From the NCBI GenBank assembly GCA_000146465.1, contig CP001950.1: a DNA stretch of 64,000 bases. One strand, 5' to 3'. This document shows, piece after piece, positions 17,536-38,183 of the stretch. Numbering within the stretch: the stretch's first letter is position 1; every line of letters starts with the position of its first letter. Made by a program: the position numbers and the translations under genes. The notes beneath the pieces were generated by a model. The model saw nothing but the letters and a program-made list of their open reading frames with translations. It did no database searches and was not told the DNA's origin.

Positions 17536-17544
17536 ACTTTTCTT

Positions 17545-18210: not shown

Positions 18211-18265
18211 AGTTTAATATAGTCTTTCTTTTCGAATAGGCTTAGGATACAAAGCTCTAACTTGT

Positions 18266-18913: not shown

Positions 18914-18937
18914 TGAATGTCAGGCCTCGTTGATTTT

Positions 18938-19128: not shown

Positions 19129-19141
19129 CCCATAGTAGGAA

Positions 19142-19948: not shown

Positions 19949-20009
19949 ATGTGTTCGATTAAAGAATGTAACTTTGTAAGGCTTTTTGAGTTAAAGTATC
20001 GGTCCCCTG

Positions 20010-20846: not shown

Positions 20847-20887
20847 GAAGATGGAATGAAGAGATAGAGGAGGATGGATAACCCCAA

Positions 20888-21409
20888 ATGTTTGAATCGG
20901 AATACTTCAAGAATCTTCTGAATGAAACTACGGCGTTGATAGCCAACAAAGTGGAGGAGGGAAACAACAGAGAAGAGATGGAGGCCCGGATCGAGAGCAA
21001 CGTGGCAACATTGAAGTATCTTGCAAGGGAAATAACAGACAGAGATCTGCAAAGCAAAACACTGAAGAGAATAGACATGCTGTGTCTCGAGCCCGAGGAG
21101 TTTGAAATGAGTGATGTTAGAAACAGGACAGTGGGAGCTAGAGGTAGTGAGCATTCGGACAGAATGGAAAGAGATATCCTCAAGTACACAAAAAGACTAC
21201 GTGGGAAGGTCAAGGAATTTATGGAAAGCGTTGATATGGACAGTAGGGTGCTGGAAGAGGTGACCGACAAAATGTCCAAGAATCTGGCAGGGACATCTTC
21301 TACACTGAAGTCCTTGAAGATAGAGGGATGTAGGATTCCAATTCTGGGCCTTCTTACCTCTGTTACAGCAGTCTTTGTTGTGATGTACTTTGTCATAAGA
21401 TTTCTGTAG
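20888..21409 (+). CDS. tail-anchored coiled-coil protein (SNARE-like; Use1/Sec20/Bet1 class candidate)
   Basis: C-terminal single TM anchor ILGLLTSVTAVFVVMYFVIRFL immediately before the stop. Preceded by a heptad region (VLEEVTDKMSKNLAGTSSTLKSLK). Confidence 0.4.
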   Translation: MFESEYFKNLLNETTALIANKVEEGNNREEMEARIESNVATLKYLAREITDRDLQSKTLKRIDMLCLEPEEFEMSDVRNRTVGARGSEHSDRMERDILKYTKRLRGKVKEFMESVDMDSRVLEEVTDKMSKNLAGTSSTLKSLKIEGCRIPILGLLTSVTAVFVVMYFVIRFL

Positions 21410-21450
21410 AAGATAATGTTTAATGGAAGTCTGCTACTAAATTTGTTGTT

Positions 21451-21909
21451 TTATATGTCGTCTTGGAAGTCTTCTTTACTTCTTCTTCGCTCCAGGAATA
21501 TCTCTTTTCCTGTTTTCCCTGTCCTCGGCTTTTCTGCTCTGGGAGTTCCCTTCTTCCAGTTCATAAAGTCCTCCTCGGTTATCTTCTGCTTATCGTCTAT
21601 GTTGTAGCTGATTGATATTCTCTTTACATCACTCACTATGTTGCTTCCTTCCAGCTTCCTGACAACTATTCTAACCATATCGAAGATCATAGGTGTCGAG
21701 ATGTACTTCTTTGTCTCCTCTCTTACTTCTGCTAATATGTTGTCTTCCACATCCGATGACATCTCTGGAATGGTGTTGGGGTAGCCTTCTGAGCATCGGA
21801 ACTCAAAGGAGTTCCCCTCAGCAGATATCTTGTAGACATGCTCTGTGTCCCTTGTGTAGTGTTCCAAATCGCCTCCAAAAATATATCTCAAAGCATCGCA
21901 CTCATCCAT
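21451..21909 (-). CDS. RWD-domain protein Gir2/RWDD1-like (DFRP2, Rbg2/DRG2 partner)
   Basis: RWD pattern: DECDALRYIFGGDLEHY...FEFRCSEGYPNTIPEMS...MIFDMVRIVVRKL. C-terminal DFRP-like ITEEDFMNWKKGT...KTGKEIFLERR. Start set at the internal Met because the upstream part of the track ORF overlaps the next gene. Confidence 0.55.
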   Translation of the reverse strand: MDECDALRYIFGGDLEHYTRDTEHVYKISAEGNSFEFRCSEGYPNTIPEMSSDVEDNILAEVREETKKYISTPMIFDMVRIVVRKLEGSNIVSDVKRISISYNIDDKQKITEEDFMNWKKGTPRAEKPRTGKTGKEIFLERRRSKEDFQDDI

Positions 21910-22059
21910 GGGGTATTCCCATCGAGCCTTCTTCTCCAGACACTGATATTTAGTCTGTCTGTCTTTTCTATCTAATAAAGTGTTTTTATTAAACTCTATA
22001 GCTGTTCTCGCCAAGCATATTCTATTTATAGAAACCAATTCTTTATATAATCTAAGCCG

Positions 22060-23571
22060 TTGTTTGTACAGATGGAAAACACAAGATGGATAAAAGCTGA
22101 AATTAAAAATGTAAACGATGGCTCTGTAGCCAGAGAAGTCTTGGCCAACGAGACAAATTCCTTTGTCAGAGAACTCAATCACTATGAAAAAAATCTTAAG
22201 GATATTCTTGAAGAACTAGAGAATCAAAACATAACTAACAAGGAAGAAGGAATTTCGTCCGTTAAGAAAGCCTTGGAGGTGTTAGAAACTCTTGAAAAAG
22301 ATGTCAGCTCAGCAGTTCCTGAAGAGACATCTATTTGGACGAAAGACTTTTTCAAAGCTGTTGATAGACTAAGAGATAGTTGTAATCTATCACTCAAGTC
22401 ACTTGAGGAGGCTCTTGAAAAATTTCTGGCCTATATTGATAATAACTCGGATCTAAAGGGAGATCTTTTGCAGAAGGCCAAGCTCATTCCCCTTCTGTGT
22501 GCATCTAGCAAGCTTAAAGAATTTTCTTCGGGTATAAGGAAGTCGGGGACCAATGCCTTTACGTGGTTTTTTAAGTTTGTTAGAAGGATTCCCGTCGAGA
22601 ATTTCAAGAAGAACATTAACTCGAGCTTAAATGGCCTAAAGGAAAAGATTTGCCGTGTATCTGGATCCCAAAGAGCAACAGGGAAGCAAGAAATCCGGGA
22701 GGCACAGAAGATTGTGGATTCTTTTTTACGCGATGTAACCGAACTTCAGGATGAATATGAGAAAACTCTTGGCCTTCTTATAAGATCGGAGATATCCTTT
22801 TCAGATGCATTTGAGACTATGCAGGGAAAGATAAGTAACTTTGATGGCCACATGAGTGATCTGGAAAAGAAGATTAAAGACATCGAAACAGCTTTCCAAC
22901 CCATCCTTCTTTCCAAGGAATCCCACGAAAGATCGTTGCCTGAAGATAGTTTTCTTAAGAACATATATCTTGTGTTGATAATTGTGTTATGCATACAGGG
23001 TGTTCTCTGGTACACAGACAATGAAAAGTCTTCTGCTGGAACTGTGTGGAACATGGTAGTGTACTCTGTGGCAGTTGTGGGGACGATTCTGTACATGGCC
23101 TGGGTGTGGGGATTTGGCGGAAGGAGATGGACTAGTGCTGCGAGCATGGTACCTATGATGGTTGGGCTTCTGAATTTGGGGAAGAGGGTGAGCTGTGAGT
23201 ACGGGATGGAGATGGCAGGGCTTGGGTTTGTAATGGTTTGTATGGAGAGTCTTGCAAGACACGGGATGTCATCATGGGAGATTTTGGCAGGATTGATCGG
23301 AAATGGAATTGTAGTGATGGGATGGGTCAGTTGGGCTACAATGAGGGATAGATATGGAGAGAGGATGAGCCAGTGGATGTGTGGGGGACTTATTGTGTTT
23401 GGAATTCTCATGGCTGTGATGATGTATATGAAGGAAGGGAGAAATGTGGAAAGGAGCACTGGAAGTTATATGGTGTTTATTATGACAGTGGTTGTTGGAA
23501 CAGCTGTGTCTTATGCATGTGGAAAGGATTACAGACAACTTGCATCTAAGAGAATGTCTCTGAAATCTTGA
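22060..23571 (+). CDS. lineage-specific family protein A: N-terminal coiled-coil/helical region plus C-terminal Gly/Met/Trp/Val-rich multi-TM domain
   Basis: 503-aa ORF, paralogous to 31371..32239 (shared blocks GISSVKKALEVLETLEKD / GINAVKETLDTLRRLKE and DVTELQDEYEKTLGLL / DVTELQDEYERIFGLL). The C-terminal 23000..23560 is strongly G+T-skewed DNA encoding 4-5 hydrophobic helices. Confidence 0.5.
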   Translation: MFVQMENTRWIKAEIKNVNDGSVAREVLANETNSFVRELNHYEKNLKDILEELENQNITNKEEGISSVKKALEVLETLEKDVSSAVPEETSIWTKDFFKAVDRLRDSCNLSLKSLEEALEKFLAYIDNNSDLKGDLLQKAKLIPLLCASSKLKEFSSGIRKSGTNAFTWFFKFVRRIPVENFKKNINSSLNGLKEKICRVSGSQRATGKQEIREAQKIVDSFLRDVTELQDEYEKTLGLLIRSEISFSDAFETMQGKISNFDGHMSDLEKKIKDIETAFQPILLSKESHERSLPEDSFLKNIYLVLIIVLCIQGVLWYTDNEKSSAGTVWNMVVYSVAVVGTILYMAWVWGFGGRRWTSAASMVPMMVGLLNLGKRVSCEYGMEMAGLGFVMVCMESLARHGMSSWEILAGLIGNGIVVMGWVSWATMRDRYGERMSQWMCGGLIVFGILMAVMMYMKEGRNVERSTGSYMVFIMTVVVGTAVSYACGKDYRQLASKRMSLKS

Positions 23572-23834
23572 ATGCAAGATGTCAAATCTTTAAAGTAATC
23601 AAAAACACAAAACAGAAAACCTCTAAAAGCTAGCTATCCTTTTTTTCTTGGATGTTTAGTAGTCTAGGTGTATTGGGCAATTGCATCAAGGATGAACCAA
23701 ACGGACACCAACTTCCAATCACTTCATGGAATACTATATTTCCAAAAAAGGCACATTCCTCAGTGAACCTGTTAAGTTTTTTTCTAATCATCTTTTTAAC
23801 CCGTTGTATAAACCAGGGACTCTAGGAAACCCTT

Positions 23835-24620
23835 ATGATTAGCATTTTATTCCTTGGCCATGCAGAAGCCGCAACGGGTATCCCTTCAGATCTCTGGGAT
23901 TCAGTAAACTACTATAGCCTCCTTTTGCCAAAGAGGCCTGAAGTGGCCTTGATCTTGTTTGTTGCGGGCCTCTTTGTGAATTTTCTGGGGATTCGTGCAA
24001 AAAGATGCTCTCTGTCTATGATCTCGTTCCCTTTACTTCGTCTGAGCATTGGAAGCATAATGAATGTGCTAAAGGAAATAGTTATAGATAAATATGGAAG
24101 CATATCCGAGGCTCCCCAGATGGTTAGGAATGGGCTTGAGATACTAAAGAAGGTGGACGAGAACAGATTCTTCATGATCTTTCTGTCTGTTGTTCTTGGG
24201 CTTGTGATGGTTTTCTTTGCCAAGGCTGTAATATACATCTTGATGGTATATCTTGCATTCCATCTGTGGGGAATACTGGAATCATCTGCCCAGGGGACAA
24301 TGGAAGGGAAACTGTATTACATTTACCAAACAATAATGTTATGCATTGGGATCTTGGTTCTGGTTCTTGTAAAGCCAATCACCTTCTTAATCTACATCCT
24401 CATCTTCTCTGTGTTTGGATCTCTCTTCATCATAGTCGGAGCCAATTTTGGATCTGGATTGAACCTCCATCTAAATCAATACATCGATATGCTTCGAAAA
24501 GGAGACTTCTATCAAGATCTGGTTGAGAATAAGATCTCTGTAGGATATATCTCCCTCGTGACGATGGGGACTATTTGCCAGATACTTCTTAGGAAGAAGC
24601 CCACGGCGAAGGCAAACTAA
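23835..24620 (+). CDS. hypothetical multi-pass membrane protein
   Basis: 261-aa ORF with 5-6 hydrophobic helices (LILFVAGLFVNFLGI, FMIFLSVVLGLVMVFFAKAVIYILMVYLAF, IMLCIGILVLVLV, FLIYILIFSVFGSLFIIVGA). Confidence 0.4.
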   Translation: MISILFLGHAEAATGIPSDLWDSVNYYSLLLPKRPEVALILFVAGLFVNFLGIRAKRCSLSMISFPLLRLSIGSIMNVLKEIVIDKYGSISEAPQMVRNGLEILKKVDENRFFMIFLSVVLGLVMVFFAKAVIYILMVYLAFHLWGILESSAQGTMEGKLYYIYQTIMLCIGILVLVLVKPITFLIYILIFSVFGSLFIIVGANFGSGLNLHLNQYIDMLRKGDFYQDLVENKISVGYISLVTMGTICQILLRKKPTAKAN

Positions 24621-24682
24621 ATGCCTCTGGGAAAGGAATTCATTTCTATATTAAAAGTTTTGGTATAATTTAATTGCCTTCC

Positions 24683-25795
24683 TCAGCACGGTGGATAAAA
24701 GCATCCAAAAAGAATTGCATATGCTATTCCAAATCCAAAGTAGAACCTGAACAGAACTTTTTTCCAGAGTCCGTTATTCATTGTGTAGTATTTTTCTGCC
24801 AGAATCCAATATATTAGAGGATTGAACGAGACAAATCTAAAGTACATGTTCCAATGAATCAAGAATACTGTGATAAGAGTTTGAGCCAGAAGGACAACCG
24901 CACACATGTCTGTGTTGAAGTGCTGAAGGATGCCAATGGCCTTGGAACTCCCTGCACATCTTTTGTTCCAGTACTCTCTGAGAATAAACAAAGAAATCAG
25001 GATGAATGGAAGCCCAACCAATACATTGGGGATGTTCTTGTATGTGAAGAATCGGAATAGTCCTTGTTCCCACAGGGTCCTCTGTATGAAAGAATAAGGA
25101 ATGAAGATTTTGTAGGTATTGTTAGCTCTGTTGATCATAAGCAGGGTGTAGTATTGAAATGCAGCAAGTGGAAGTAGAAATACAGCGATTTTTGTGAATG
25201 TATATCTACTTAAAGGACACATGAGAAATGGAGCAAATAAAACCGCATTCGATCTGCACAGGCCGCACAAAGACAAAAACAACACTCCGCGAACAGTGTC
25301 TCTGTTTTCTATGAAATACATTCCCAAGAGAAAGAGAAGCATGAACAAGGATTCCGAATACATGGCTGTGTACACTATAGATGCCGGGTTGAAAATGAAG
25401 AGGATACAGCTCATCGCTGCTATTTTGTTTCCGTACCTTTTTTGGGTGATCCTGTAGAGCAATGCAGAACTAAAGACAAAGGCTGTACACGAGACAAGAA
25501 CTCCCACTGTGTATGGATCTAGTGGAAGAACCTTGTGGATACAGCGGGATAGATACGGAAGAAGGGGAAAGAATGCAGCCTCATGGGTTTTCCTGTATCC
25601 TCTCTCCATGATCTCTAGGAAGTGAATGGAGTCCCACGAAAGGAGAAATTTCATACATGAGTTGCTGGGAATAAGTTCTGTGGATTTGTCAAAGCGAGGA
25701 AGAAGGAGATATGCAACATATGAGATACCTATGTAGAAGGCACGAGAGGCTGCTGCCAACCTGATTACTCCTTGAATGTTCGTGGCGAATGGCAT
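24683..25795 (-). CDS. GPI18: GPI mannosyltransferase 2 (PIG-V/GPI18 family)
   Basis: LSWDSIHFLEIMERGYRKTHEAAFFPLLP matches the PIG-V SHWDAEHFLFIAEHGY..EH.FAFFP motif. Also MYSESLFMLLFLLG, LCRSNAVL and AFQYYT blocks; multi-TM throughout. Confidence 0.7.
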   Translation of the reverse strand: MPFATNIQGVIRLAAASRAFYIGISYVAYLLLPRFDKSTELIPSNSCMKFLLSWDSIHFLEIMERGYRKTHEAAFFPLLPYLSRCIHKVLPLDPYTVGVLVSCTAFVFSSALLYRITQKRYGNKIAAMSCILFIFNPASIVYTAMYSESLFMLLFLLGMYFIENRDTVRGVLFLSLCGLCRSNAVLFAPFLMCPLSRYTFTKIAVFLLPLAAFQYYTLLMINRANNTYKIFIPYSFIQRTLWEQGLFRFFTYKNIPNVLVGLPFILISLFILREYWNKRCAGSSKAIGILQHFNTDMCAVVLLAQTLITVFLIHWNMYFRFVSFNPLIYWILAEKYYTMNNGLWKKVLFRFYFGFGIAYAILFGCFYPPC

Positions 25796-25861
25796 TCCAA
25801 TAGGGGAGCATCTTGGAATTTGTTTATCTCAACTTGTAAATTTTACAAGGTTACACACCCC

Positions 25862-26683
25862 ATGTTTGTTTTTCTTCTCCACCTGCTCGGATGTTTGTGC
25901 AGCGAACATGTCTTTATACAAGAGGCGTCGCTACTGTCGCCATATGTAGATGAGATTGGCAGGTTCCTCAACTGGAAGACATTTGGGGAGCAAGTAATAA
26001 AGGTCCATGGAAAGGATATGTTTGTACAGTTAGGATACTCGTCTCCAAATAGCTCTGGGGCTGTTGTGGCATCTCACCCCATAGGTTCTGAGAGGTTTGG
26101 GATGGATCTGATTATTGAGGTGGACTCTGGACAGAAAGGGGACACCAACGAGGGAATGGCCATATGGATATCTGATGAGGAAACGTTTAAGGAGGGGCCT
26201 TGTTTTGGGAGGTCATGTAGTTTCAAAGGCCTTTTGGTTGTCATAAAGCCCTCTGGAAAGTCTTATGTTGGGGTGAAGGCTGGTGATGTTATGATCAACA
26301 CCAGTAATATGGCCAAGAATTTTGACAAGGTTGAATACAGAGACTTTTCCTCTGGAGAGAAATTCGTTCTTAGAATTGAGCAAAAGGATTATGAGCTGTC
26401 TATATATATAGGAGAGGGGGAAGACTTCTCTCTTGTGCATTCTTACAGATACAATCTTGTAAAGGAAGGAGACCTTCTTGGGGTTTCTGCATCAACGGAC
26501 AGATCGTCGACTTCATTCAGGTTGATTGGAATTGAAAGTTACCATCTAAAGAACATGGAGGGCAAGGGATATGCAAAGGAAGATGTACACAGCGGTGGAA
26601 GACTTATTTGGTTTATCCTTGCAGTTGTAGTTTCAATAACCGCATACTACCTCTACAACATCCAAGTAAAAAAGGATAATTAA
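25862..26683 (+). CDS. L-type (legume-like) lectin domain cargo receptor (ERGIC-53/Emp46/47-like), type I membrane protein
   Basis: Signal peptide MFVFLLHLLGCLC. Lectin-fold blocks EGMAIWISDEETFKEGPCFGRSCSFKGLLVVI and GVSASTDRSSTSFRL. C-terminal TM LIWFILAVVVSITAYYLY plus a short tail. Confidence 0.55.
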   Translation: MFVFLLHLLGCLCSEHVFIQEASLLSPYVDEIGRFLNWKTFGEQVIKVHGKDMFVQLGYSSPNSSGAVVASHPIGSERFGMDLIIEVDSGQKGDTNEGMAIWISDEETFKEGPCFGRSCSFKGLLVVIKPSGKSYVGVKAGDVMINTSNMAKNFDKVEYRDFSSGEKFVLRIEQKDYELSIYIGEGEDFSLVHSYRYNLVKEGDLLGVSASTDRSSTSFRLIGIESYHLKNMEGKGYAKEDVHSGGRLIWFILAVVVSITAYYLYNIQVKKDN

Positions 26684-26922
26684 CTTCTAGTCCTTCTATT
26701 CTATAGTCTTTAAGCTGTACTTAATCATCCAACACCCCGAATTTGGAACTTCGGAAATATTCTCCCAACCGGTGCCAAATAGAACAAGAGGTCTTTCTAC
26801 AAGGAGAGGTGGCAGTCCAGTGGAGGATCTCCTCGAAAACTACTTCTAGTTGGGTAGATTCGAGAGTAGCCATTGTTGGCTTGATCCCACCAGACAAAGG
26901 GGCAGGGTAGATCCTATTTCGT

Positions 26923-28545
26923 GTGGGCCCTTTGGATGGAAGGGCCTGGAGAGCAGCGGAGGGCATGTGTTCTCCGGCAATAGAGGGCCCTGGTGAATTC
27001 ATCGAGTTCCTGAAGCCCCTGATGATTGAAAGTCCTGCAATAAAAAAGTTTATTGTTAATTACTTTATTGAACACAGCCAAGAGAACATTGATGATATAG
27101 CAGCCAGGATCGACGGATGTCTTCGGAAGAGGTTTGTGGAGAACGAGGTGGTGTCTGTTGTAAGGTCTGGGGAGTGGGGAAGGATTTCTCGAGTGGCTGG
27201 AGACAGGTATGTTGTAAGCATCCTGTCTCTAGATGGAGGGCGAGAGGAAAGGCTCCACTTTTCGGAGCTTGCAAGGAAGGACATGGCGGGGCGGACGGAG
27301 GTCAAGGGATATCTGCTTGGGATAACAATGGAAACTCCTTTTGGACGGGTGCTGAAGGAGAATGCATTCCGAAGCATAAGAGACTCTGGGGAAGTGATGA
27401 AATGCAAGGTTCCACAGAGCCAGTGCTATGAAGGGAGTTTTGTGTCTCGGAGGGGTGTTGGGGGGACGGAGAGAAGGAAATGGAAGACGGAGAAGGAAGG
27501 GCAAGGCTCGAGAGAGAAGAACGAGGAAAGGGAGACAGAGGGCAGTAGGGCGAAGCGGGCCTCCGTGCGAAAGGAGGGGACGAAGGAGACGAGTGTGAGT
27601 TCGATCCTCTTGGTGGGGCCTTCGCAGGCTCTGGAGATCCCGGGGCTTAGGAAGGAAGATATCGAGCTAGTGATGAAGATCTTTGGAGTGGTAGCAAACT
27701 TCGGGGGGTTTTTTGGGATCCAAGAGATTGATGTTTTGTCGCTAGGGAGGGCTATTGTTGATCCTTGGTATGAGGATGATACGATATGCAAGATCCATTT
27801 GAAGCTGATCTCTGGACTTCGGACAGAAATGGATTCTGTGGGGATGGAGGAGTTTGTGGAGAACAGCAAGGCATGCATTGAATGGGCCAAGGAGCAAGGA
27901 AGGGAGGAGGATTTGGCTGGAGATGGGGGGGAGATGGAGGAGTGTCTTGAACAGTCTCTGGGCTGTGGGGAAGAGGGCTGGAAGAAAGACCTAAGGAAGC
28001 TTATTGAGAGTATTTGCGATGATGGGGACACAGACATTTTTGGTATTGTGAGGAGCATCTCTGGAAGGAGCAGGGCTCTTGGGAGGGGAGAGATAAGAAA
28101 GAGGCTTGTTGTGATTGAGCTGCTGATGAACATGTTCTTTACAACAGAACAGTTCCGAGAGATTATATGGGAGAAGATGGAGGAGTCGAAGGATCTTGAG
28201 AAGAAGAAGAGGGAGCTCCAGACAAGGCTTAAGAGGAGTGTGGGATGGGATGGAGAGAGCAAGGAGGCAGGAGAAGGCTCTCGAGCCGAGATGGAGAAGG
28301 AGCTTGGGGACACAAGAGAGAAGATATTCCAGCTTCCTGTGAATACTGGGGTTGGAACTGTGGATGGGGTTGGGCTTCTTCATCTTGGGAGGAAGATCTA
28401 TGCAGCCTGGGAAGGAGACTACTATTTGGTGGGGAGAGACAGGCTGGCAGATCTATGTAAGAAATATAAGGCAAAGAACAAAGAGGAGAGACATGTGCTG
28501 GAAAGCATAGGACAGAACATAGAAGGGTTGAAAGGCCATCTTTGA
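26923..28545 (+). CDS. hypothetical nuclear protein with possible DDT domain (ISWI-accessory-like) in a purine/GC-rich block
   Basis: 540-aa ORF. IPGLRKEDIELVMKIFGVVANFGGFFGIQEIDVLSLGRAIV resembles a DDT domain. The N-terminal barrel-like segment VVSVVRSGEWGRISRVAGDRYVVSIL is followed by charged low-complexity. Confidence 0.4.
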   Translation: MGPLDGRAWRAAEGMCSPAIEGPGEFIEFLKPLMIESPAIKKFIVNYFIEHSQENIDDIAARIDGCLRKRFVENEVVSVVRSGEWGRISRVAGDRYVVSILSLDGGREERLHFSELARKDMAGRTEVKGYLLGITMETPFGRVLKENAFRSIRDSGEVMKCKVPQSQCYEGSFVSRRGVGGTERRKWKTEKEGQGSREKNEERETEGSRAKRASVRKEGTKETSVSSILLVGPSQALEIPGLRKEDIELVMKIFGVVANFGGFFGIQEIDVLSLGRAIVDPWYEDDTICKIHLKLISGLRTEMDSVGMEEFVENSKACIEWAKEQGREEDLAGDGGEMEECLEQSLGCGEEGWKKDLRKLIESICDDGDTDIFGIVRSISGRSRALGRGEIRKRLVVIELLMNMFFTTEQFREIIWEKMEESKDLEKKKRELQTRLKRSVGWDGESKEAGEGSRAEMEKELGDTREKIFQLPVNTGVGTVDGVGLLHLGRKIYAAWEGDYYLVGRDRLADLCKKYKAKNKEERHVLESIGQNIEGLKGHL

Positions 28546-28567
28546 CTGTCTGTTTGTTTATGATGTA

Positions 28568-30010
28568 TTGGAAGGGGTTTTATCTGTGAGTAAACAACCA
28601 ATACAAATGGAAAGGCAGAGATTTACAAACCTGCTGAAGGATGGAGAGAGAGGGATTCCTCCGGAGTACAGCATGAGCTTGGGGAAACACTCTGTGACTG
28701 TGCGGAACCTAAAGAAAAAGTATCTTATAAACAAGATTACATTGCTAGACATCTACAACTACTACAGAACCCCGTTATCGGTATACACATCACAGAAGAT
28801 CAGGAACATGTTCGTAACGGCATCTCTGTGTCTTACTGTGTATCTGGCATCGAACATAGATTCAATCAGAAGCAACAAGATTCCGAGGCTTGGAGTAAAC
28901 TTCTCGTCTGCAGCCCTGGTTATTGGCGGGGTGTTTGTTGGCAGGGAGGCGATTTCGTATGCGATCAACTTCAGGAAGATGGTGTCTATATTCTACATGT
29001 ACAGATACATTCTGGAGAGAGACATGGAGGAGATCCGGTTCAAGGATGTTGTGTCGGGGATGATCAAGCTGGAAAGAGAGGTGCACAACAGAGACCTGGA
29101 GGAGAAGGATGTGCGGGACATTGTGAACCATAACAGGCTACTCCTTCTGTTGATGATGAGGAAGTTTCCTTCGATATTCCGGCCGGCATGTTCCAGGTTC
29201 CTGCTGCACATCCTCCATGGCTACATCCACAGAATAGAAGAGGGCCCTGTGGAAGAGCTGGGAGACGAGATCCGGGTGGTTTCGATTGGAATCTTCATAT
29301 TGTCCCCGGCGATTTCGATCTTCTTTATTCTGTACTACATTGCAAAGATCATAGAAAAGTCCCAGAGCAATATGTTCTATGTGTTCAAGAAGTCCCACAG
29401 GCCGTGGTTCAAGTACATGATGGCCAAAAGAAACGAGTATCCACACGAAACACACAGGAAGATACAGAAGGGAGCTGGATATCTAAACGGATTTTTTCTT
29501 TCAAGAAAGAGAGACTGCATCCCAAGGGTCTGCTCTGGGATCTCGTTTCTTCTGAGCTGTCTTGTGTTTCTGGTTGGATATCTTATTCTGAGCATCTTGG
29601 TTGCATCCAAGCCAAACCTGAGCCAGAGCCTTTCCCAGGATATAACTGTCTTTGGGAGGACAACAAACATAGTGTATCTCTCGTACCTCATGGGGGGAAT
29701 ATCCTGCTGCCTGAGATGTCTCAGCATCGAGTATGGGGTTTCGAACCGTCGAAAGATGTTTGCCAAGTGGTGTGTGCTGATGGAGCAGACGGAGGTGCTG
29801 AAGTACTGTGGAAGGCGGGGATCCCTTGAGGCGATTATGTCGAAGATCTTTGTTCCGCGTATATATTTATTTCTTGTAGAGATAGTGTCTCCATTTATTG
29901 TTCCTTTCCAGTTGGAAGGAATGAGAAGGAGGTTGGAGAGGATCCGGCAGGAGTTTGAATCTGTGGGGGAGGGGGAGTACGACAGGCGGGTCTCGATCCT
30001 TGATCTATGA
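28568..30010 (+). CDS. polytopic membrane protein, weakly Atg9-like
   Basis: LLDIYNYYRTPLSVYTSQKIRNMFVTASLCLTVYL resembles the Atg9 core LDxFLxxVYxYYxGxG...L; then FKDVVSGMIKLEREVHNRDLEEKDVRDIVNHNRLL (compare Atg9 W.EV..RI..LQ......LDAHDIANRIMRKENY). Multiple TM helices. The assignment is tentative. Confidence 0.4.
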   Translation: MEGVLSVSKQPIQMERQRFTNLLKDGERGIPPEYSMSLGKHSVTVRNLKKKYLINKITLLDIYNYYRTPLSVYTSQKIRNMFVTASLCLTVYLASNIDSIRSNKIPRLGVNFSSAALVIGGVFVGREAISYAINFRKMVSIFYMYRYILERDMEEIRFKDVVSGMIKLEREVHNRDLEEKDVRDIVNHNRLLLLLMMRKFPSIFRPACSRFLLHILHGYIHRIEEGPVEELGDEIRVVSIGIFILSPAISIFFILYYIAKIIEKSQSNMFYVFKKSHRPWFKYMMAKRNEYPHETHRKIQKGAGYLNGFFLSRKRDCIPRVCSGISFLLSCLVFLVGYLILSILVASKPNLSQSLSQDITVFGRTTNIVYLSYLMGGISCCLRCLSIEYGVSNRRKMFAKWCVLMEQTEVLKYCGRRGSLEAIMSKIFVPRIYLFLVEIVSPFIVPFQLEGMRRRLERIRQEFESVGEGEYDRRVSILDL

Positions 30011-30037
30011 CGGGAGGAAACACGGCATGGATCATAT

Positions 30038-31171
30038 TCACAGATTGATTTCTTTGTGGGGTTCCAGAACACCCAGGTCTCGGAGCTTGTCGCTCACCAC
30101 AGATGCCTTGACAACATACTTACTTCCAAATCTTCTTACAAGCTCTCCGAGATCTTTACAGCGAAGAAGCTCTTTTTCAAGTTCCCCCAAAAGCTCTTCG
30201 GGAAATACTTCGCGCTCTACTAGTGGAAGAGAAATCCAGGAGGAGCAGAATGACGGAAATATAGTAAACTTACAGGAAGGAAATCCAAGACATGGCTTCC
30301 GACATGTTCTAGATGGCTCCATCCTTTCCGAATCCAACTCTATCCATTCACAACTACTTTCTTCCTCCGAAGATTCCTCTTCTGTGCTTTCAATAACTTC
30401 TGCATCCTCGCAATCTTCCCAATCAGAATCTTCCTCGTAGTCTAAAACTTGTGGAAGCCTTGTAAGGCTGTTTTTCACATAATGTTTCTGTCCTCCAAAT
30501 CCATAGAGAGGTGGCCTAAGCTGGTTGGAAAATTTGATGAAGGATAATCTTCTTGGATCTTGAATGTCTTTTCTTATGCGTATTGTGGAACTGAGAGGAC
30601 TCGAAGGCATGCTGACTGCTGTCTCCTTGTCGAAGCATATTGGGGAAAATAGTCCAAGCATATCCGCCGAAGGCTTCTTTATGCCTTCTACCTGAATAAA
30701 TCTCAGCATACCAGAAGTGTTTGCTTCTTCTTTTTCTGTATCTCTCTCCAAGCCAGAAATCCCTTTATCTTTAGCTTTTTTCTTTCTCGCTCTCTTCAAT
30801 AGGCTTCGAACACCTTTAGAGATTCCATCAAGGCTCTTAAGAAAGTATATATTTCCCTCTCCACTTACTTCCACATCGAAATTGGACTCAACAGCCTTCT
30901 TCAGACTATTTACTCTGTCTTTTCTCCTCTTCGACGTTTTTTTATACGAATATAGGATTTTGTCCATCCAATAGTAGTCCACCTTCTGCTTCCCTTCTAC
31001 TAGGAGAGCTATAAGATCTAGAGGAACCTCTTCTTCTCGTCCTCTCTTCCACTCATGCAGAATCTTTAGCACTTCCGGATGGAATAAAACATCCGTAATC
31101 ATAAAAAGGATAAGAATAAAACAATATAAAGATATTGGGAAGATACAATGGCAATATGTTCTTTCTACCAA
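30038..31171 (-). CDS. chromatin assembly factor 1 large subunit (CAF-1 p150/Cac1-like)
   Basis: RPPLYGFGGQKHYVKNSLTRLPQVLDYEEDSDWEDCEDAEVIESTEEESSEEESS matches the CAF-1 p150 block RPAYYGTWRKRSK...LLDYEVDSDEEWEEEEPGESL (ED domain). A K/R-rich KER-like segment lies upstream. The true start may be the internal Met (31102). Confidence 0.55.
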   Translation of the reverse strand: MVERTYCHCIFPISLYCFILILFMITDVLFHPEVLKILHEWKRGREEEVPLDLIALLVEGKQKVDYYWMDKILYSYKKTSKRRKDRVNSLKKAVESNFDVEVSGEGNIYFLKSLDGISKGVRSLLKRARKKKAKDKGISGLERDTEKEEANTSGMLRFIQVEGIKKPSADMLGLFSPICFDKETAVSMPSSPLSSTIRIRKDIQDPRRLSFIKFSNQLRPPLYGFGGQKHYVKNSLTRLPQVLDYEEDSDWEDCEDAEVIESTEEESSEEESSCEWIELDSERMEPSRTCRKPCLGFPSCKFTIFPSFCSSWISLPLVEREVFPEELLGELEKELLRCKDLGELVRRFGSKYVVKASVVSDKLRDLGVLEPHKEINL

Positions 31172-31370
31172 ATACTTCCCATCATACCCACAGTTTCATG
31201 GGGATTATATGAAGGATACCCTGGCTCTTCCCCTTCTTTAGACAAGAATAAGCATCCAACTAAAAGCCCCTCTTCAAGTTCCGGCCCCTTTAAAGCCAAA
31301 CCGCCAAGGATGTTTTTACTAAACAGTTGTCCACTATTCTTATGATTCCCCTTCTAATTGGCCAATTATA

Positions 31371-32239
31371 GTGAGGACTCCCACATACGCTCCAATAGCA
31401 GTGCCCTTAATGAATCATATCAACCGTATCCGAGATATACTCATCAACCTTGATTCACAAAGCTCTCTTCATGAAGAAACAGTTGCAGAATGTGCATTGG
31501 TATATTATTATAATGCTGTAAGTAAGTTTCTGAATGGAATCCTCTTCTATGAGGAGAAGTTAAATGAAGTCTTGGAGTCTTTGAACAACAAGCTCAATTC
31601 ACAGAGTGAAAAGGGAATTAACGCGGTCAAAGAAACTCTGGACACACTTCGTAGGCTTAAGGAGACAATACAACCTAAAATCGAATGTCCTTTTAACCAA
31701 CTTTCTCATCCTCCAGAACTAACAAATATTGAAATCCTCGAGTACAACTTCAAAACTTTTGAAGAGTACTTCAAAGCAATCGATAGAATGGTTTCTTCGG
31801 AAGGACAGATTCCATTTGAAGAGTTCAAGGATGCACTCAGGAATGTCTTGCCATATGTCGATTATCCACTGACCCACAGTACAGGATCCCATTCTATTGT
31901 TCTCAAAAACGTATTTCTTCAACTCTTGGGGGAGTATAATGTCTCTGCTGTATTTGAAAATACCTGTCTCAATAAGTATTATGAAAACTTAAGAATAATA
32001 GGAAGAAAAGTTCTCCAGAAGCATTTTGAATCTCTCATAAAAAGTCTTGTCTCAGAAAACTGGAAAAACGAAATAGAAAAGGAACTAAGTGCTTTGGAAA
32101 GGGAGGTATCCCTGGCGTATAAACATCAAAGGAAAAGAATAGAACAAGGAATCCAAGATGCTCGAGCTGTCTTAAACTCCCTTTCTCAGGATGTAACCGA
32201 ACTTCAGGATGAATATGAGAGAATTTTTGGCCTTCTTAT
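31371..32239 (+). CDS. lineage-specific family protein B (paralog of 22060..23571), 3' end lost in assembly gap
   Basis: The N-terminal helical region is collinear with family member A. The ORF runs into the N-run at 32240. Confidence 0.45.
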
Positions 32240-32339
32240 NNNNNNNNNNNNNNNNNNNNNNNNNNNNNNNNNNNNNNNNNNNNNNNNNNNNNNNNNNNNN
32301 NNNNNNNNNNNNNNNNNNNNNNNNNNNNNNNNNNNNNNN
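32240..32339. other. assembly gap (100 N)
   Basis: Run of exactly 100 n characters. Confidence 0.99.
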
Positions 32340-32408
32340 CAGGTCTCGGAGCTTGTCACTCACCACAGATGCCTTAACAATATACTTGTAGGATATGTAT
32401 TTCTTCAT
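32340..32408 (-). pseudogene. duplicated 3'-terminal fragment of the CAF-1-like gene (copy of 30074..30121)
   Basis: 32340..32387 matches 30074..30121 at 45 of 48 nt. It encodes ...KYIVKASVVSDKLRDL, identical to the C-terminus ...KYVVKASVVSDKLRDL of 30038..31171, then diverges. Confidence 0.5.
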
Positions 32409-32654
32409 AGAATATTGGAATAGTATGCATTGGAAAGGGTGGAGTAGCTTGCATCTAAGAGGACATCCTCGAAGTCCTGAGTGTAGTATTCTTGATTATT
32501 AAATATAATTAAAAACTATGCATTGGAAGTATTGGAGGTTAATTATCCTTTTTTACTTGAGTGTTGCAAAGATATGCGATTATCAGGACTACACTATGGA
32601 TCCAACAAGGAGGCCTTTCCCTTGTATGGATTCTGAAGAATCCCAGAGAGATCA

Positions 32655-33188
32655 TTATTCTTTTTTAGATTGACTTTCTAAGAACCTGTTCTGCACTTCC
32701 ACCACTTCAGCACTTGACGTGCACTTGGAGTACTCCTCAAGAAGATCTTCATTTAACTTGTAGAATTCATTTCCATAATTAAATTCGTTAAGAATCTCAT
32801 AGGCTTCCTCTTTGAAGCCACAGATATACAGCGAAGCACTCAGTGCCTCGGCACAGTTCAGCTTAAAAGGCTTGCCATAGTTTACCGGGTTTGCTGCAAC
32901 CATAAACGGAAGAAGCCTGTTGTGCTTCCTTGGAAGCCTTTTAAAGTCCACAGAGTCTAACTGTGCCCATGAACAGTCTATAAGCCCTATTCCAAATCTT
33001 TCTATGACGTCTCTGTCTGCAGGAGAGATAGACTGATCTGCATCTGGAGAAAGAACCACTCCTTTGAAGTTTTTATTCTTTTTTATTGGCTCAATCTTGT
33101 TCTGTTTGATAAGTTTCTTCCCAGAACACTTTTTTGGATCGCACTGCTCAAACTCGTAGATTATCTTCCTCATCCCAGGACTACCCAA
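32655..33188 (-). CDS. TSR3: TSR3, 18S rRNA aminocarboxypropyltransferase (DUF367)
   Basis: FEQCDPKKCSGKKL, GVVLSPDADQSISPADRDVIERFGIGLIDCSWAQLD, RLLPFMVAANPVNYGKPFKLNCAEAL are all Tsr3 hallmark blocks. Confidence 0.85.
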   Translation of the reverse strand: MGSPGMRKIIYEFEQCDPKKCSGKKLIKQNKIEPIKKNKNFKGVVLSPDADQSISPADRDVIERFGIGLIDCSWAQLDSVDFKRLPRKHNRLLPFMVAANPVNYGKPFKLNCAEALSASLYICGFKEEAYEILNEFNYGNEFYKLNEDLLEEYSKCTSSAEVVEVQNRFLESQSKKE

Positions 33189-33204
33189 TTATAAAGACTT
33201 TATT

Positions 33205-34404
33205 CTATGCAGAAGAGACAGAAAGGTTCTTGCTATCCCTTTCCATACTTTCGTCAGGCTCCAGAATCCCCTCAACCATTTTTCTGAAGTTCTCGTACCC
33301 TATCTTGTAGATATTTCCCTTCTCTTGGTAAAAAGATGGCTCTCCCCCAACAGCAACCACCCTTGCATCCTCCTTTCTCTGTATTTCTTTGTACACATCA
33401 AACGAAACATCCTTCGTCGAAACCACCGTTCTTATGTCGAAACTCGAATATTCAAAGAAAAGAAGCTCGGCAAGAATCTGAGGAAGAGGACGGGCAGAGA
33501 CAAAGTAGACTGTCTGCTTTGTTCTATGGAGCTTCACAACAGAGTCGTATAGACGTGTTATTCGGCTTTTAAGTAGCCTATCTACACTGTAGAAAAGAGG
33601 CGTGCATGTAAACTTGAACCTTTCTGAGCTGTTAAATATCCTTTCAAACCGATGGTATTTGTCCCTCTTCAAGTTCCGAAGTGTAGTTGCTTCATGGCCT
33701 TCTCCTCCGTCTTCCTCACCCAAGCTCCCGAGGGTGATGATTCTAGAGCAACTGTTGTCGATGCAAAATAGAATGTCTCTGATCTCGGAGATTCTTCTTG
33801 ATGTCTCTTCCTTTGCCTGGCATCTTAGCCCTCCAATTCCAAATATGGGATCAAGATCAATCACAAATACACTTCGGACACTAGTCAACCCATCCTTGAT
33901 TTCGCACACCTCTTTGGTGGTTATTTCAGGGAGCTCAATTAGAAGTGACTTTATCTCTTCTTTTGTGTCGCTTGCTTTGTTGAATTCCCTCTTGATCATC
34001 TTGTCTCTTCTTCTGTCTGCTTCAATCTTAGATATTATAAATGAGTTTTCCGTATCTTCAAACATCTTCTCGTAATTTTTCATGCATTGGAAGTGCTTCT
34101 TCACATCCTCAAATTTCTCCCTCCTAATCAGGCCCATCTTATAGAGGTAGTAATATGTTGAGTACACATATTGATTGATGTTCTTCCTGTCCTCAATGGA
34201 GGGAACGAGTTCATCTGCAGGTGCCTCTACAGCTTCAATCAACCTTACTATAGCAGTGTTCCTTTTTGTCCCAAGTAAGCTTCGGACTTGGTCCCTTAGA
34301 GGCTGCTGGATCATCTTCGTTCTTATCTGCTCCTTGTTGTCATTTACAAATGCTTTGTCCTTGCATCTTTCCAAGAGATCCGAAATGTCCATTCCCTTTT
34401 CCAT
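33205..34404 (-). CDS. hypothetical protein (possible PIN/NYN-like nuclease fold; weak)
   Basis: 399-aa ORF. VRSVFVIDLDPIFGIGG and a later acidic cluster hint at a PIN/NYN-type fold; this is not secure. Confidence 0.35.
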   Translation of the reverse strand: MEKGMDISDLLERCKDKAFVNDNKEQIRTKMIQQPLRDQVRSLLGTKRNTAIVRLIEAVEAPADELVPSIEDRKNINQYVYSTYYYLYKMGLIRREKFEDVKKHFQCMKNYEKMFEDTENSFIISKIEADRRRDKMIKREFNKASDTKEEIKSLLIELPEITTKEVCEIKDGLTSVRSVFVIDLDPIFGIGGLRCQAKEETSRRISEIRDILFCIDNSCSRIITLGSLGEEDGGEGHEATTLRNLKRDKYHRFERIFNSSERFKFTCTPLFYSVDRLLKSRITRLYDSVVKLHRTKQTVYFVSARPLPQILAELLFFEYSSFDIRTVVSTKDVSFDVYKEIQRKEDARVVAVGGEPSFYQEKGNIYKIGYENFRKMVEGILEPDESMERDSKNLSVSSA

Positions 34405-34467
34405 TCAAAGGGCTTTGTAAATTCCTGCTTTGTTGGTGCCTCTTCCCTCTTCAACCACATCATTCCT

Positions 34468-35100
34468 TCACTTCTCCAGAACAACAAATAGACTCTCCTC
34501 CTCAGGCCCATGGTCTAGAACCTTGAATCCGGAAGATTTGCAGAGCTCCACCAAATCCTCCATGCCATAAAGATGGTAGTATCTCTTGGCATCATCCCTG
34601 AGATTCCATGTTGCAAAATAGTCCTGTTCAGATCCTCCGATGATCTTCGAAAACTTCCTCTTTCCACTTACAGAACTTCCCCACACATATACTAGCATCT
34701 TGCCTCCATCTCTCAGGACCCTTCTCATCTCCTCCATCGCCTTCTTCCTCCTACAATCAGTACTAAGATGATGGATCACCCCGACACTCAGCACAAGATC
34801 AAAGCTACAATCTACAAAGGGAAGCTCCAAAACATCTCCTCGGATCAGCCCATAGTTCTTTACAGCCTTCCCGTCTCTCAAGAGACCCCAGCAGTAATCC
34901 AACCCGACTATTCCCGGCACCAGAAACGATCTTCCGTTTCCACATCCAGCATCAAGCACAATAGAATCGGCTGTCCAGTACCTGTCCAGGAAGGTTTCTG
35001 TCATCTTCCAATGCTTCCTCCTTGTTGCCGAAAACTCCCTCGAGTTTTCATTGTAGAATTTGTGTACAAACTCTCCTTCAAACTCGTTTGGATCTTCCAT
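34468..35100 (-). CDS. TRM9: SAM-dependent methyltransferase, tRNA wobble-uridine methyltransferase TRM9-like
   Basis: VHKFYNENSREFSATRRKHW, IVLDAGCGNGRS (motif I), CSFDLVLSVGVIHHLST, LRDGGKMLVYVWG. Collinear with Trm9/ALKBH8 MTase domains. Confidence 0.7.
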   Translation of the reverse strand: MEDPNEFEGEFVHKFYNENSREFSATRRKHWKMTETFLDRYWTADSIVLDAGCGNGRSFLVPGIVGLDYCWGLLRDGKAVKNYGLIRGDVLELPFVDCSFDLVLSVGVIHHLSTDCRRKKAMEEMRRVLRDGGKMLVYVWGSSVSGKRKFSKIIGGSEQDYFATWNLRDDAKRYYHLYGMEDLVELCKSSGFKVLDHGPEEESLFVVLEK

Positions 35101-35166
35101 AGTATAGGCTCAGAAGTCAATAAATATTTAAAAGACTCAAATACATATTCTTTACTAAGTTCTATG

Positions 35167-36546
35167 CTATTTCAAAAGGCCTTTGGCTGCCCTTCTGATC
35201 TCGGAATCCGAACTGTCGCATAGCCTACAAACAATTTCTTTTATGCCCTCGTCCATTTCCTGCGCATCTATTCTTTCCAGTGTGCACAACTTCACATTTT
35301 CAATCGGGTCCGACAACAGCTTCTTCCCAAACCCCGTTCCGTGGGCCTTATCAAAGGAGAGTGCTGCCTCCACCGAAGTTATCCTATACAGATAGGACTT
35401 TGATGAGGAGATGGCTTCTATCTCGGGGAGCCATTCAACCGTCCAGGGATATATCGAAACTAACTCCCCAATTACCTTGGAAGCCTCTGCCCTTACCTCA
35501 TACACCTTGTCCTTAAGATAGCCAAGAAGATGCCTTCCCAAAAACTCCTTGAGAAGCTTTTCATCCTGCTTCGAGGCACATGAAATAGACTCGAGGATCT
35601 CCTTTCTTGTCCTCCAATTAGGTGTGGAGTTGAGGGTGTTTATAAGAGGGATGACAATGCTTTTGTATGTATCCACCCTCTGGACACACAGAAGAGCCTT
35701 TTTAACTTCCCAACTTGTATCCGTGATAACATCCTTTAGCATCTCTTGAAACTCCTCTCTGTTTCCTATCATCTGGATGATCAGGGCCCGGACTCCAGGA
35801 CTACTGTCTTTCAGAAACAACGGAACAAGCCTGTCCCAACCTTCAACGTGCTCCATGTTTCCTGCAAGACATATTCTAATCTCCTCCTCAGGATCCTGGG
35901 ACAGATGTGAATACACAGCAGCTCGGTCGCTTACATTGAGCCTGCGAATCTCCTTAGCAATTGCATACCTTCTCCTCCAGGATTTCGATGTGCATATCTC
36001 AGATACAAACTTTGTCTGTCTCTTTATAAGGGGAATCACACAAGAACTTGCACACTGAATCCATTCCGAGTAGGAGCCATGCAGATCGTTCACAATCTCT
36101 ACAAGCTCGTCGTCATCAAATGGAATCGTCTTGTATTCCTCTAGCGATAACGCTGCTTTTCTAGCTACTGCTGCAACAGGATCCTTCAAGCATCTTCTCA
36201 AAGCCTCCTTTGCCTCCTTGTACTCCATGTTCACAATCAAGGATGGAATAGCTTGTCTTTGTACATAAAATGGTGATTTAAGAAGCTTCTTGATGAATCT
36301 GTCCACCTCGTCTGGAAAAGATTCAAATATCCTTCGAATAACAGGTACAATCCTTTCGGGCTCCTCAATAAGAAGAAGCTCACAAATGATTAGATGTCCT
36401 TTGTCCGGAGCAAGAGCAGCAAGATACTCGACTAACAACTCGTTGAGCTTTGGATCAACCCCAACAAGTAACTCTAGCTTTTCTACAGATAGATGCATCC
36501 GGCCCCTCAACTTTTCCACAAGGTTCGACACTTCGTTGTCAATCAT
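35167..36546 (-). CDS. HEAT-repeat protein, PP2A scaffold (A/PR65) subunit-like
   Basis: Repeated xWRxRxA HEAT units (SWRRRYAIAKEIRRL, SWEVKKALLCVQRV, NWRTRKEILESIS, PGVRALIIQMIGN) typical of the PP2A A subunit. Confidence 0.45.
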   Translation of the reverse strand: MIDNEVSNLVEKLRGRMHLSVEKLELLVGVDPKLNELLVEYLAALAPDKGHLIICELLLIEEPERIVPVIRRIFESFPDEVDRFIKKLLKSPFYVQRQAIPSLIVNMEYKEAKEALRRCLKDPVAAVARKAALSLEEYKTIPFDDDELVEIVNDLHGSYSEWIQCASSCVIPLIKRQTKFVSEICTSKSWRRRYAIAKEIRRLNVSDRAAVYSHLSQDPEEEIRICLAGNMEHVEGWDRLVPLFLKDSSPGVRALIIQMIGNREEFQEMLKDVITDTSWEVKKALLCVQRVDTYKSIVIPLINTLNSTPNWRTRKEILESISCASKQDEKLLKEFLGRHLLGYLKDKVYEVRAEASKVIGELVSIYPWTVEWLPEIEAISSSKSYLYRITSVEAALSFDKAHGTGFGKKLLSDPIENVKLCTLERIDAQEMDEGIKEIVCRLCDSSDSEIRRAAKGLLK

Positions 36547-36662
36547 TTCAAAGGGTTTTGAAACAGGAGAATTTCAGGTTGGAGTTATAGGACGGAATCC
36601 TATTCCATTTTCTTTTGTGCCATCTATCCTACTCCTTAGTTTGGAATAATTTTATCCATAGC

Positions 36663-37505
36663 ATGAAGTACAAAATAACATCGAAGAGACTTGATGAGAA
36701 GATCCTGGCAGTTCATGTGAACGGGGCTGTTTACACAGGCGGAACATCTAGGACATTGGTCAACCAGGATACTGGAGAAGTGATGTGCCGGTGCCGGAAG
36801 TCGATAAGATCAATAGCAAGCCATGGAAGGTACATATGCTGTGCAAGCTATGATTGCACTGCAGTGCTGTTCCACGACGGGAAGGTTGTAGATGTCATCG
36901 AGGGCCCAGACACAGAGATCAAATGTGTTGGATTTTCCGAGGATGGACGGTATCTAGCCATGGCTACACGAGGAAAGTCGGTGTGGGTGGTGAAGATAGA
37001 CCCCGAGATAGAAATCGACGAGATTATAGAGGATCATCTTCATGATGTAAAGGGTTGTGTGTTCCATAAGGGATTTCTATTTACATATGGATACGACAAC
37101 ACAATAAAGATCTACGAAAGGTTTGACTACGATGACTCCTGGGAACTTGTGCAGTCGATCAGTGAGAAAAATACAGTATGGTGTGTTATATTTCACGGGG
37201 ATAAAATGGTATGTTCCACCGAGGAAGGGACGATCAGCTCGTATGTGCTGAGAAATGGGTGGGAGCTCGAGGCATGCAAGAAGTTGTCGATATTTCCTAT
37301 CTATTCGATTTGTAGTGTTGGGAGGGATATGGCATACGTTTTGAACAGAAACAACATCGGGATTATCGACAGTAACCTGAACCTTACCACGACTATTGAG
37401 GATATACATGAAGACTTCATAAATGGAATTGCATATGATGAAGGACGAGGCAGGATAATCAGTGGAGGAGACGATGGGATTCTGAATGTGATCGAGATGT
37501 TTTAG
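36663..37505 (+). CDS. CIA1: cytosolic iron-sulfur assembly protein CIA1/CIAO1 (WD40)
   Basis: EGPDTEIKCVGFSEDGRYLAMATRGKSVWVVKIDPE..E..IEDHLHDVKGCVFH...YDNTIKIYERFDYDDSWELVQSISEKNTVWCVIFHGD matches the CIAO1 pattern EGHENEVK..KSVWVW..H.QDVK..SYDDT.K.Y...DW...GH.STVW. Confidence 0.75.
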   Translation: MKYKITSKRLDEKILAVHVNGAVYTGGTSRTLVNQDTGEVMCRCRKSIRSIASHGRYICCASYDCTAVLFHDGKVVDVIEGPDTEIKCVGFSEDGRYLAMATRGKSVWVVKIDPEIEIDEIIEDHLHDVKGCVFHKGFLFTYGYDNTIKIYERFDYDDSWELVQSISEKNTVWCVIFHGDKMVCSTEEGTISSYVLRNGWELEACKKLSIFPIYSICSVGRDMAYVLNRNNIGIIDSNLNLTTTIEDIHEDFINGIAYDEGRGRIISGGDDGILNVIEMF

Positions 37506-37550
37506 AATCCTTTTTTAAAAAGGCGATAAAATTTTGCCCCTAAAGAAAGG

Positions 37551-37654
37551 ATGCAATTGACAAGGAAGACTAATCAACTGGCTATTCCTGATCTCTCAGG
37601 AAAGGTAACTGTGAAGGATCTACTGGAGGCTTTTTCGAAGTATGAAAAGGAAAT
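37551..37654 (+). CDS. RRM RNA-binding protein, exon 1 (two-RRM protein)
   Basis: ATG at 37551, preceded by ccccTAAAGAAAGG. Encodes MQLTRKTNQLAIPDLSGKVTVKDLLEAFSKYEKE and ends in phase 2 immediately before GTAAGT. Confidence 0.6.
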
Positions 37655-37729
37655 GTAAGTGAAGATAAAGTATCCTTGGTTCGTGAAACTGAGCCATGAT
37701 GAGAACTTTGGGCAGATACTAACTTTTAG
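37655..37729 (+). other. spliceosomal intron (75 nt): 5' GTAAGTG ... TACTAAC (37717..37723) ... TTTTAG 3'
   Basis: GTAAGT at 37655. A perfect yeast-type branch site TACTAAC lies 6 nt upstream of the AG at 37728..37729. The intron contains the in-frame TAA (37656) that otherwise splits the gene. Removal joins at|a to an Ile codon and keeps the RRM reading frame. Confidence 0.65.
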
Positions 37730-38183
37730 AACAAGCGTCAAGCTTAGCAAGCAAAGGAGATCAAGAGATGAGGATCTCAAGGTTGGATATGTTGAGTTTG
37801 AAACGGTTGAGGATACGGAAAAGGCCTATGGAGAGGGAAGCATCAAGGTTGGGGGAGAGATGAAGGCTCTACACTATGCAAAGAGAAAGGACCAAAGAAT
37901 GAGAGAACGGGTTGTTGTTTCTAACAAGAAGGTGTATATTTCTGGAATTCCCGAGGATACCGACAAGGACGAGCTTTCTGCACTCTTGGGAAATTGCAGG
38001 ATATCTGGAGGAGACAAGGGCAAAAGCTATCTTTTTGCAGAGTATGACAACAGCGAGGAACAGGAGAAGGCACTGAACAGAATCAATAACTCGAAGATCA
38101 AAGGCTCTAAGTTGTTTGCAACTCAAGCATATGAAAAGGCAAACATTGGAAGAACTGGTAGAAAGAGGAGCGATTCCAATTAA
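37730..38183 (+). CDS. RRM RNA-binding protein, exon 2
   Basis: RNP1-like GYVEFETVEDTEKAY closes RRM1. A second RRM follows: KVYISGIPEDTDKDELSALLGNC...KSYLFAEYDNSEEQEKAL...IKGSKLF. Confidence 0.7.

Follow-up and report, generated by a model that had tools for sequence, protein, structure and literature searches.

The 100-N gap in the 2010 chromosome IX record of Encephalitozoon intestinalis very probably marks a false join between two collapsed repeats

Introduction

Duplicated segments in the telomere-to-telomere (T2T) assemblies of Encephalitozoon measure 3.0-37.5 kb with at least 96.5% identity; the main text of that study discusses subtelomeric duplications and terms the chromosome cores repeat-poor (PMC10158259). 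According to the same paper, DUF1686 proteins are InterC transmembrane proteins, a multigene family that belongs to the subtelomere gene content (PMC10158259).

The chromosome IX locus analyzed here resembles these systems in part. A 3,416-nt duplicated pair falls within the size and identity range given in PMC10158259, but that study describes telomeric or subtelomeric segments common to chromosome ends, whereas the present pair is intrachromosomal, lies 60.7 kb apart and carries conserved housekeeping-type genes; chromosome IX and the 3,416-nt pair have no mention in the main text of that paper. Two DUF1686 genes are also involved, and they share PF07937 with the InterC family of Encephalitozoon (carried by Eint_091090 and by a 550-aa protein of the T2T assembly). 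In contrast to the subtelomeric setting of that family, these two members sit among conserved genes, at ~88 and ~140 kb of the 269-kb chromosome, and they differ from it further in a sharply bounded 821-nt near-identical C-terminal tract, their N-terminal halves being weakly similar.

The 2010 genome assembly of E. intestinalis was produced with Velvet at hash 19 from paired 31-bp Illumina reads (insert size 337 bp), and its scaffolds were linked by PCR and Sanger sequencing (PMC4355639). Its authors termed the assembly gap free (PMC4355639); the record nonetheless contains a run of 100 Ns and a gene annotated as partial (Eint_091160), and the version number of the protein ADM12242.2 hints at a later revision. 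The locus shares with short-read de Bruijn-graph (Velvet-type) collapse the presence of repeats longer than reads and inserts, contig ends that fall at repeat edges to within the scale of k, a single copy in place of two, joined flanks of different copies, and Ns between sequences that are not neighbours. What is special here is that two repeats (3.4 kb and 821 nt) jointly make one gap, each side of which matches a different place. The evidence presented below makes it almost certain that the gap is a false join, in a short-read assembly that was unable to span two repeats on chromosome IX.

Results and Discussion

The gap and its flanks

The analyzed window is a stretch of 64,000 nt of CP001950.1 (GCA_000146465.1), in which a single N run, a 100-N placeholder that creates a false adjacency, occupies 32240..32339. 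Comparison of the window with itself by BLAST yielded four non-trivial matches, two of which abut the gap. On the left side, 32190-32239 is identical to 22732-22781 at 47/50 positions (94%, E 2.7e-14); on the right side, 32340-32387 is identical to 30074-30121 in the same orientation at 45/48 positions (93.75%, E 3.2e-13). Both matches are flush with the gap, in agreement with the first-pass annotation, which had described an assembly gap with duplicated sequence on either side. The right-flank identity of 45/48 was reproduced exactly, and the left-flank match is real, although it had been placed one position off (32190 pairs with 22732) and given as 92% rather than 94% identical.

The left flank belongs to Eint_091160, a partial gene on the plus strand (31410..32239; its 276 aa are encoded by 31410-32237) that corresponds to residues 1-276 of UTX45990.1 (550 aa, DUF1686) and is ended by the contig end. 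What matches is not an isolated short similarity but the opening of a near-identical tract of 821 nt. The other copy of this tract lies at 22732..23552 (plus strand), where it forms the C-terminal 273 codons of Eint_091090 (499 aa). Because the 50 nt at 32190..32239 (plus strand) are the beginning of the tract, the contig stops just inside a repeat. Window positions 22732-23552 are 98.2% identical to the gene for the 550-aa DUF1686 protein in CP075166.1, the T2T sequence of the chromosome, and the two 821-nt copies within CP075166.1 have 12 differences (98.5% identity). The two DUF1686 proteins resemble each other only weakly as far as DVTELQDEYE and are nearly identical beyond it. Eint_091090 matches PF07937 with 81.3 bits (cut-off 25), and the complete 550-aa T2T protein has PF07937 in precomputed annotation; the Eint_091160 fragment (residues 1-276) has no PF07937 match because the domain is C-terminal.

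Right of the gap, the minus strand translates as ...MKKYISYKYIVKASVVSDKLRDL, compared with a CAF1A C-terminus of ...GSKYVVKASVVSDKLRDLGVLEPHKEINL (stop); the right-flank peptide ...KYIVKASVVSDKLRDL stands against ...KYVVKASVVSDKLRDLGVLEPHKEINL (stop). The C-terminal peptide that had been reported as shared with the CAF-1-like gene is thus present. That gene, Eint_091150 (354 aa), is intact at 30038..31102 on the minus strand and matches PF12253 with 28.5 bits (cut-off 25, E 1.7e-6). Its gene model has an ATG start; the ORF drawn from a mechanical TTG start matched nothing in the look-up. Beyond the gap, CAF1A is reduced to 16 codons in the window and to a remnant of 28 codons in CP075166.1, so this piece is not a gene; in copy A of CP075166.1 (see below) it sits in a 34-codon ORF, MKKYISYKYIVKASVVSDKLRDLGVLEPHKEINL (stop).

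Proteins of the window exactly match Eint_091090, Eint_091150 and TSR3 from the 233,397-bp record of E. intestinalis ATCC 50506; the window also carries Eint_091130 (DUF5097) and Eint_091140 (ATG9). The older annotation of ATG9 (Eint_091140) gives 400 aa from an internal Met (28808-30010), and the T2T and 2025 annotations give 467 aa in the same reading frame (28607-30010).

Two copies of a 3,416-nt segment on chromosome IX

The telomere-to-telomere assembly of chromosome IX of E. intestinalis ATCC 50506 (CP075166.1, 268,753 bp) contains a 3,416-nt segment twice, at 83013-86428 (copy B) and 143761-147176 (copy A). These are direct copies, 60.7 kb apart and 99.6% identical with 14 differing sites, and each comprises DUF5097, ATG9 and the last 84 nt of CAF1A, the DUF5097 and ATG9 ORFs being intact at both. 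The gene order at copy A is DUF1686 (499 aa) - 261 aa - mannosyltransferase - lectin-like - DUF5097 - ATG9 - 378 nt - TSR3, and that at copy B is Noc2 - DUF5097 - ATG9 - CAF1A - DUF1686 (550 aa) - 306 aa.

A single, collapsed and chimeric version of the segment lies in the window at 26706..30121 (plus strand) and matches both CP075166.1 loci. It consists of 316 nt of upstream region, DUF5097 (27022-28545), ATG9 (28607-30010) and the last 84 nt of CAF1A (minus strand). At the 14 diagnostic sites, the first nine window alleles (26738-27027) are A-type and the last five (28358, 30072, 30092, 30110 and 30115) are B-type, after which the unique flank of copy B follows. The switch from A to B is placed in the interval 27028..28357, which contains no A/B differences; had the consensus at 28358 been picked arbitrarily between the copies, the switch could have occurred as far on as 30071.

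Alignment to CP075166.1 divides the window accordingly. Positions 14683-30121 align to the copy A locus, as do 32340-38061 at 100%, and 26706-32239 are 99.84% identical to the copy B locus and match the independent 73.6-kb contig L004 equally well. The stretch 30122..32239 is the misplaced right flank of copy B, found in CP075166.1 ~58 kb upstream at ~86.4-88.5 kb; between ATG9 of copy A and TSR3, CP075166.1 contains none of this sequence. The true neighbour of CAF1A is ATG9 of copy B. Beyond the gap, 32340..32387 (minus strand) represents the last 48 nt of copy A, carrying the CAF1A 3' end remnant, and 32388..32654 is the genuine right flank of copy A, identical at 100% to CP075166.1, L005, the GCA_051312815.1 contig and the ERR13302946 assembly. 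This flank is intergenic up to the TSR3 stop codon and contains a direct repeat (32412-32444 and 32505-32537).

The repeat edges were examined in other contigs, and all four junctions are carried outside CP075166.1. The lectin-repeat junction is present in contig L002 and in the window; the junction of the repeat with the TSR3 flank is present in a 109-kb contig of GCA_051312815.1 (L006) and in the Logan assembly of ERR13302946 (L007); and the Noc2-repeat and repeat-CAF1A junctions are both present in L004, whose gene order (Noc2 - DUF5097 - ATG9 - CAF1A - DUF1686) is the same as that of CP075166.1.

Repeats can be over-expanded by long-read assemblers, and the opposite reading would be that the 2010 arrangement is correct and that the second 3.4-kb copy is an artefact of the T2T assembly; no observation in favor of this reading was found. 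The presence of every repeat junction on non-T2T contigs makes this exceedingly improbable. Moreover, the window itself holds both right-hand junctions (30121/30122 and 32387/32388), so at least two copies must exist.

Another reading takes the scaffold as mostly correct and regards the sequence right of the gap as a real local duplication, in which a 3' fragment of CAF1A was copied 2.2 kb downstream and a small stretch was left unsequenced. The 45/48 identity of the two CAF1A ends in the same orientation is in its favor. However, in three separate datasets (CP075166.1, L006 and L007) the sequence left of the position equivalent to 32340 is the 3' flank of ATG9 (...GGGGTTCCAGAACATC joined to CAGGTCTCGG) and not the DUF1686 gene, and in none of them does a CAF1A or DUF1686 gene occur between the ATG9 flank and the post-gap sequence. 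In addition, a further 274 codons of the DUF1686 gene interrupted by the gap lie beside the 306-aa gene ~58 kb away. We therefore consider a local duplication hardly credible. The first-pass annotation had offered it as one of two options and had placed the CAF1A parent only 2.2 kb upstream of the fragment; the fragment and the segmental duplication are real, but the duplication is not local, the true distance being ~58 kb and the 2.2-kb spacing an artefact.

The locus of copy B in the 2010 record

In the 2010 record, Eint_090520 (ZGRF1-like), Eint_090530 (Noc2), Eint_090540 and Eint_090550 (306 aa) have consecutive accessions and locus tags. Eint_090540 (261 aa) equals residues 290-550 of the 550-aa DUF1686 protein, and the record has DUF5097 and ATG9 only as Eint_091130 and Eint_091140. 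Judged by these tags and accessions, the consecutive run Eint_090530-090550 leaves no room at the true locus for copy B, for CAF1A or for the 5' half of the DUF1686 gene. Copy B is thus missing at its own place and present only at that of copy A, which indicates a collapse plus a misjoin. The 2010 record splits one 550-aa gene into Eint_091160 and Eint_090540.

These observations also bear on whether the 2010 culture carried a real structural variant, in which unequal crossing-over between copies A and B gave an A/B hybrid copy with the right flank of copy B behind it and the 100 Ns hide a duplicated stretch of ~57 kb. The clean pattern of A alleles followed by B alleles is also expected of a crossover product, and the 100-N run sets no length. 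A copy-adding crossover would, however, keep copy B, CAF1A and the N-terminal half of DUF1686 at the Noc2 locus, where the 2010 record lacks them. Both contig ends fall at repeat edges on the k-mer scale; long reads of the same ATCC strain and separate 2025 assemblies give the simple two-copy arrangement; and the older chromosome record is the shorter one (233,397 versus 268,753 bp). A variant of this kind is very unlikely.

Repeat collapse in the short-read assembly

Repeat lengths of 3,416 and 821 nt are beyond the span of 31-bp reads and 337-bp inserts. In a k=19 graph computed from the two CP075166.1 loci, the copies share runs of 1,312 and 1,695 consecutive 19-mers, and position 32340 is exactly the first copy-A-specific 19-mer, after one shared 19-mer. 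The pre-gap contig ends within the copy-B-specific branch of the DUF1686 repeat, 5 nt before the node end predicted by a strict two-copy k=19 graph. The two repeats also interrupt other short-read assemblies: L002 ends at 27148, L004 317 nt into the DUF1686 repeat, and L006 171 nt into the 3.4-kb repeat.

A false join could have arisen as follows. With 31-bp reads and k=19, identical stretches would have been collapsed into shared graph nodes, and a path entering by A and leaving by B would have been picked wrongly. What the alignments show is a contig that comes into the 3.4-kb repeat through the lectin-like gene on the left of copy A, passes out through CAF1A and the gene for the 550-aa DUF1686 protein on the right of copy B, and halts 50 nt into the 821-nt repeat. 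The next contig begins in the last 48 nt of copy A, its true left neighbour being ATG9 of copy A, and the two contigs were probably set side by side with 100 Ns during finishing. The 2010 assembly thus has one repeat copy instead of two, displaces CAF1A, within ~2.2 kb of sequence, by ~58 kb and splits a DUF1686 gene. On this account, the 100 Ns mark two unrelated contig ends and no missing stretch. The case is a textbook repeat collapse, and the local juxtaposition is no real feature. The collapsed repeat or misjoin proposed at first reading is supported by long-read and independent short-read assemblies of E. intestinalis, and in the 2023 long-read assembly of this strain the misjoin is already resolved.

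Several substitutions in the DUF1686 genes of the 2010 record are private. Those at 22855, 23232 and 23298 in Eint_091090, and those at residues 406, 473 and 532 (numbering of the 550-aa protein) in Eint_090540, match neither T2T copy. The possibility that the sites at 22855, 23232 and 23298 are paralogue alleles was rejected as the paralogue differs there, and a simple mixture of two copies in the consensus is consequently no explanation. They could be consensus errors in the repeat or alleles of a third DUF1686 copy; such a hypothetical copy would also account for the 5 nt by which the pre-gap contig falls short.

Inverted lectin 3' ends and small repeats

Between the CAF1A remnant and TSR3, at 32494..32583 (minus strand), the 3' end of the lectin-like gene recurs as an inverted and degenerate copy. 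This copy is identical to its partner at 26636-26729 (plus strand) at 71/94 positions, and an exact 22-mer is found at 26663 (plus) and 32538 (minus), with 0 expected by chance. Copy A is thus bracketed by inverted arms. An inverted repeat with the same origin, 203 nt long and 93% complementary, occurs in E. hellem (L011 6522-6724 and 9693-9895), where its arms flank a block of three genes (261aa-mannosyltransferase-lectin). This block has opposite orientations in E. intestinalis and E. hellem. A single inversion between the lectin-3' inverted repeats was rejected as the origin of the E. intestinalis order, as it cannot reproduce the orientation of the fragment near TSR3. Contig JAGEXW010000014.1 of the E. 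hellem assembly GCA_018342045.1 (end at locus position 6701) breaks off within the 203-nt arm, 182 nt beyond the stop codon of TSR3, and is another repeat-caused assembly break at the orthologous site.

The direct repeat right of the gap (32412-32444 versus 32505-32537) is 73% identical over 33 nt. It is genuine, being identical in the T2T and two other assemblies, and its second copy adjoins the inverted lectin-3' fragment. The exact 12-mer TATGCATTGGAA occurs at 32424 and 32517, and with at most one mismatch it has four matches in the window against 0.36 expected by chance. Two direct repeats had been noted here before; both are real, but the first copy starts at 32424 rather than 32425 and reads ...GGAAAGGGTGGAG. 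The self-comparison also gave a direct repeat at 55106-55176 and 55328-55398 (71 nt, 79% identity). It falls within a 622-aa ORF (54137-56005, plus strand), in a middle part that is Ser/Gly-rich and of low complexity, and encodes an internal peptide repeat, ...PSTGSQGGKGAESGKSS... versus ...PSTESQGGKKTESGKSS....

Origin and evolution of the duplication

The DUF5097-ATG9-CAF1A trio occurs once in E. hellem and once in E. cuniculi, and no DUF5097 or ATG9 gene adjoins TSR3 in E. hellem, which together indicate that copy B is ancestral. Copy A is a derived insertion that brought 84 nt of CAF1A along, and 32340-32387 is a real remnant of that gene. Differences between A and B are concentrated at the edges of the segment, with 12 in 427 nt of edges versus 2 in the 2,989-nt DUF5097-ATG9 core (Fisher p = 9e-10). 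Because purifying selection alone would leave synonymous differences, this distribution suggests that the core underwent gene conversion or was later overwritten a second time.

A Logan contig of a related microsporidian (SRR21023582, L013 7001-9908; TSR3 78% identical) has TSR3 followed directly by Noc2 and a ZGRF1-like gene. In E. intestinalis, copy A, ~57 kb and copy B lie between TSR3 and Noc2. Given that TSR3 and Noc2 are adjacent in this relative, the two copies of the duplication sit at both ends of a block that is absent there.

Ectopic gene conversion appears to keep the 3.4-kb coding core near-identical. The similarity of this core, the 821-nt DUF1686 tract, the inverted lectin 3' arms and the three-gene inversion relative to E. 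hellem raise the tentative possibility, which we hold to be somewhat less probable than its opposite, that recombination is active at this locus, in a chromosome whose structure is otherwise regarded as frozen.

Implications for use of the chromosome IX record

The gap itself yields no new biology, and the consequences of the misjoin are practical rather than conceptual. The 2010 record of chromosome IX undercounts two genes, the second copies of DUF5097 and ATG9, and presents one DUF1686 (InterC) gene to its users as two partials (Eint_091160 and Eint_090540). It also puts CAF1A (Eint_091150) ~58 kb off, beside the wrong ATG9 copy, and synteny comparisons made from it may lead to the inference of a false transposition. 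CP075166.1 should take the place of the 2010 record.
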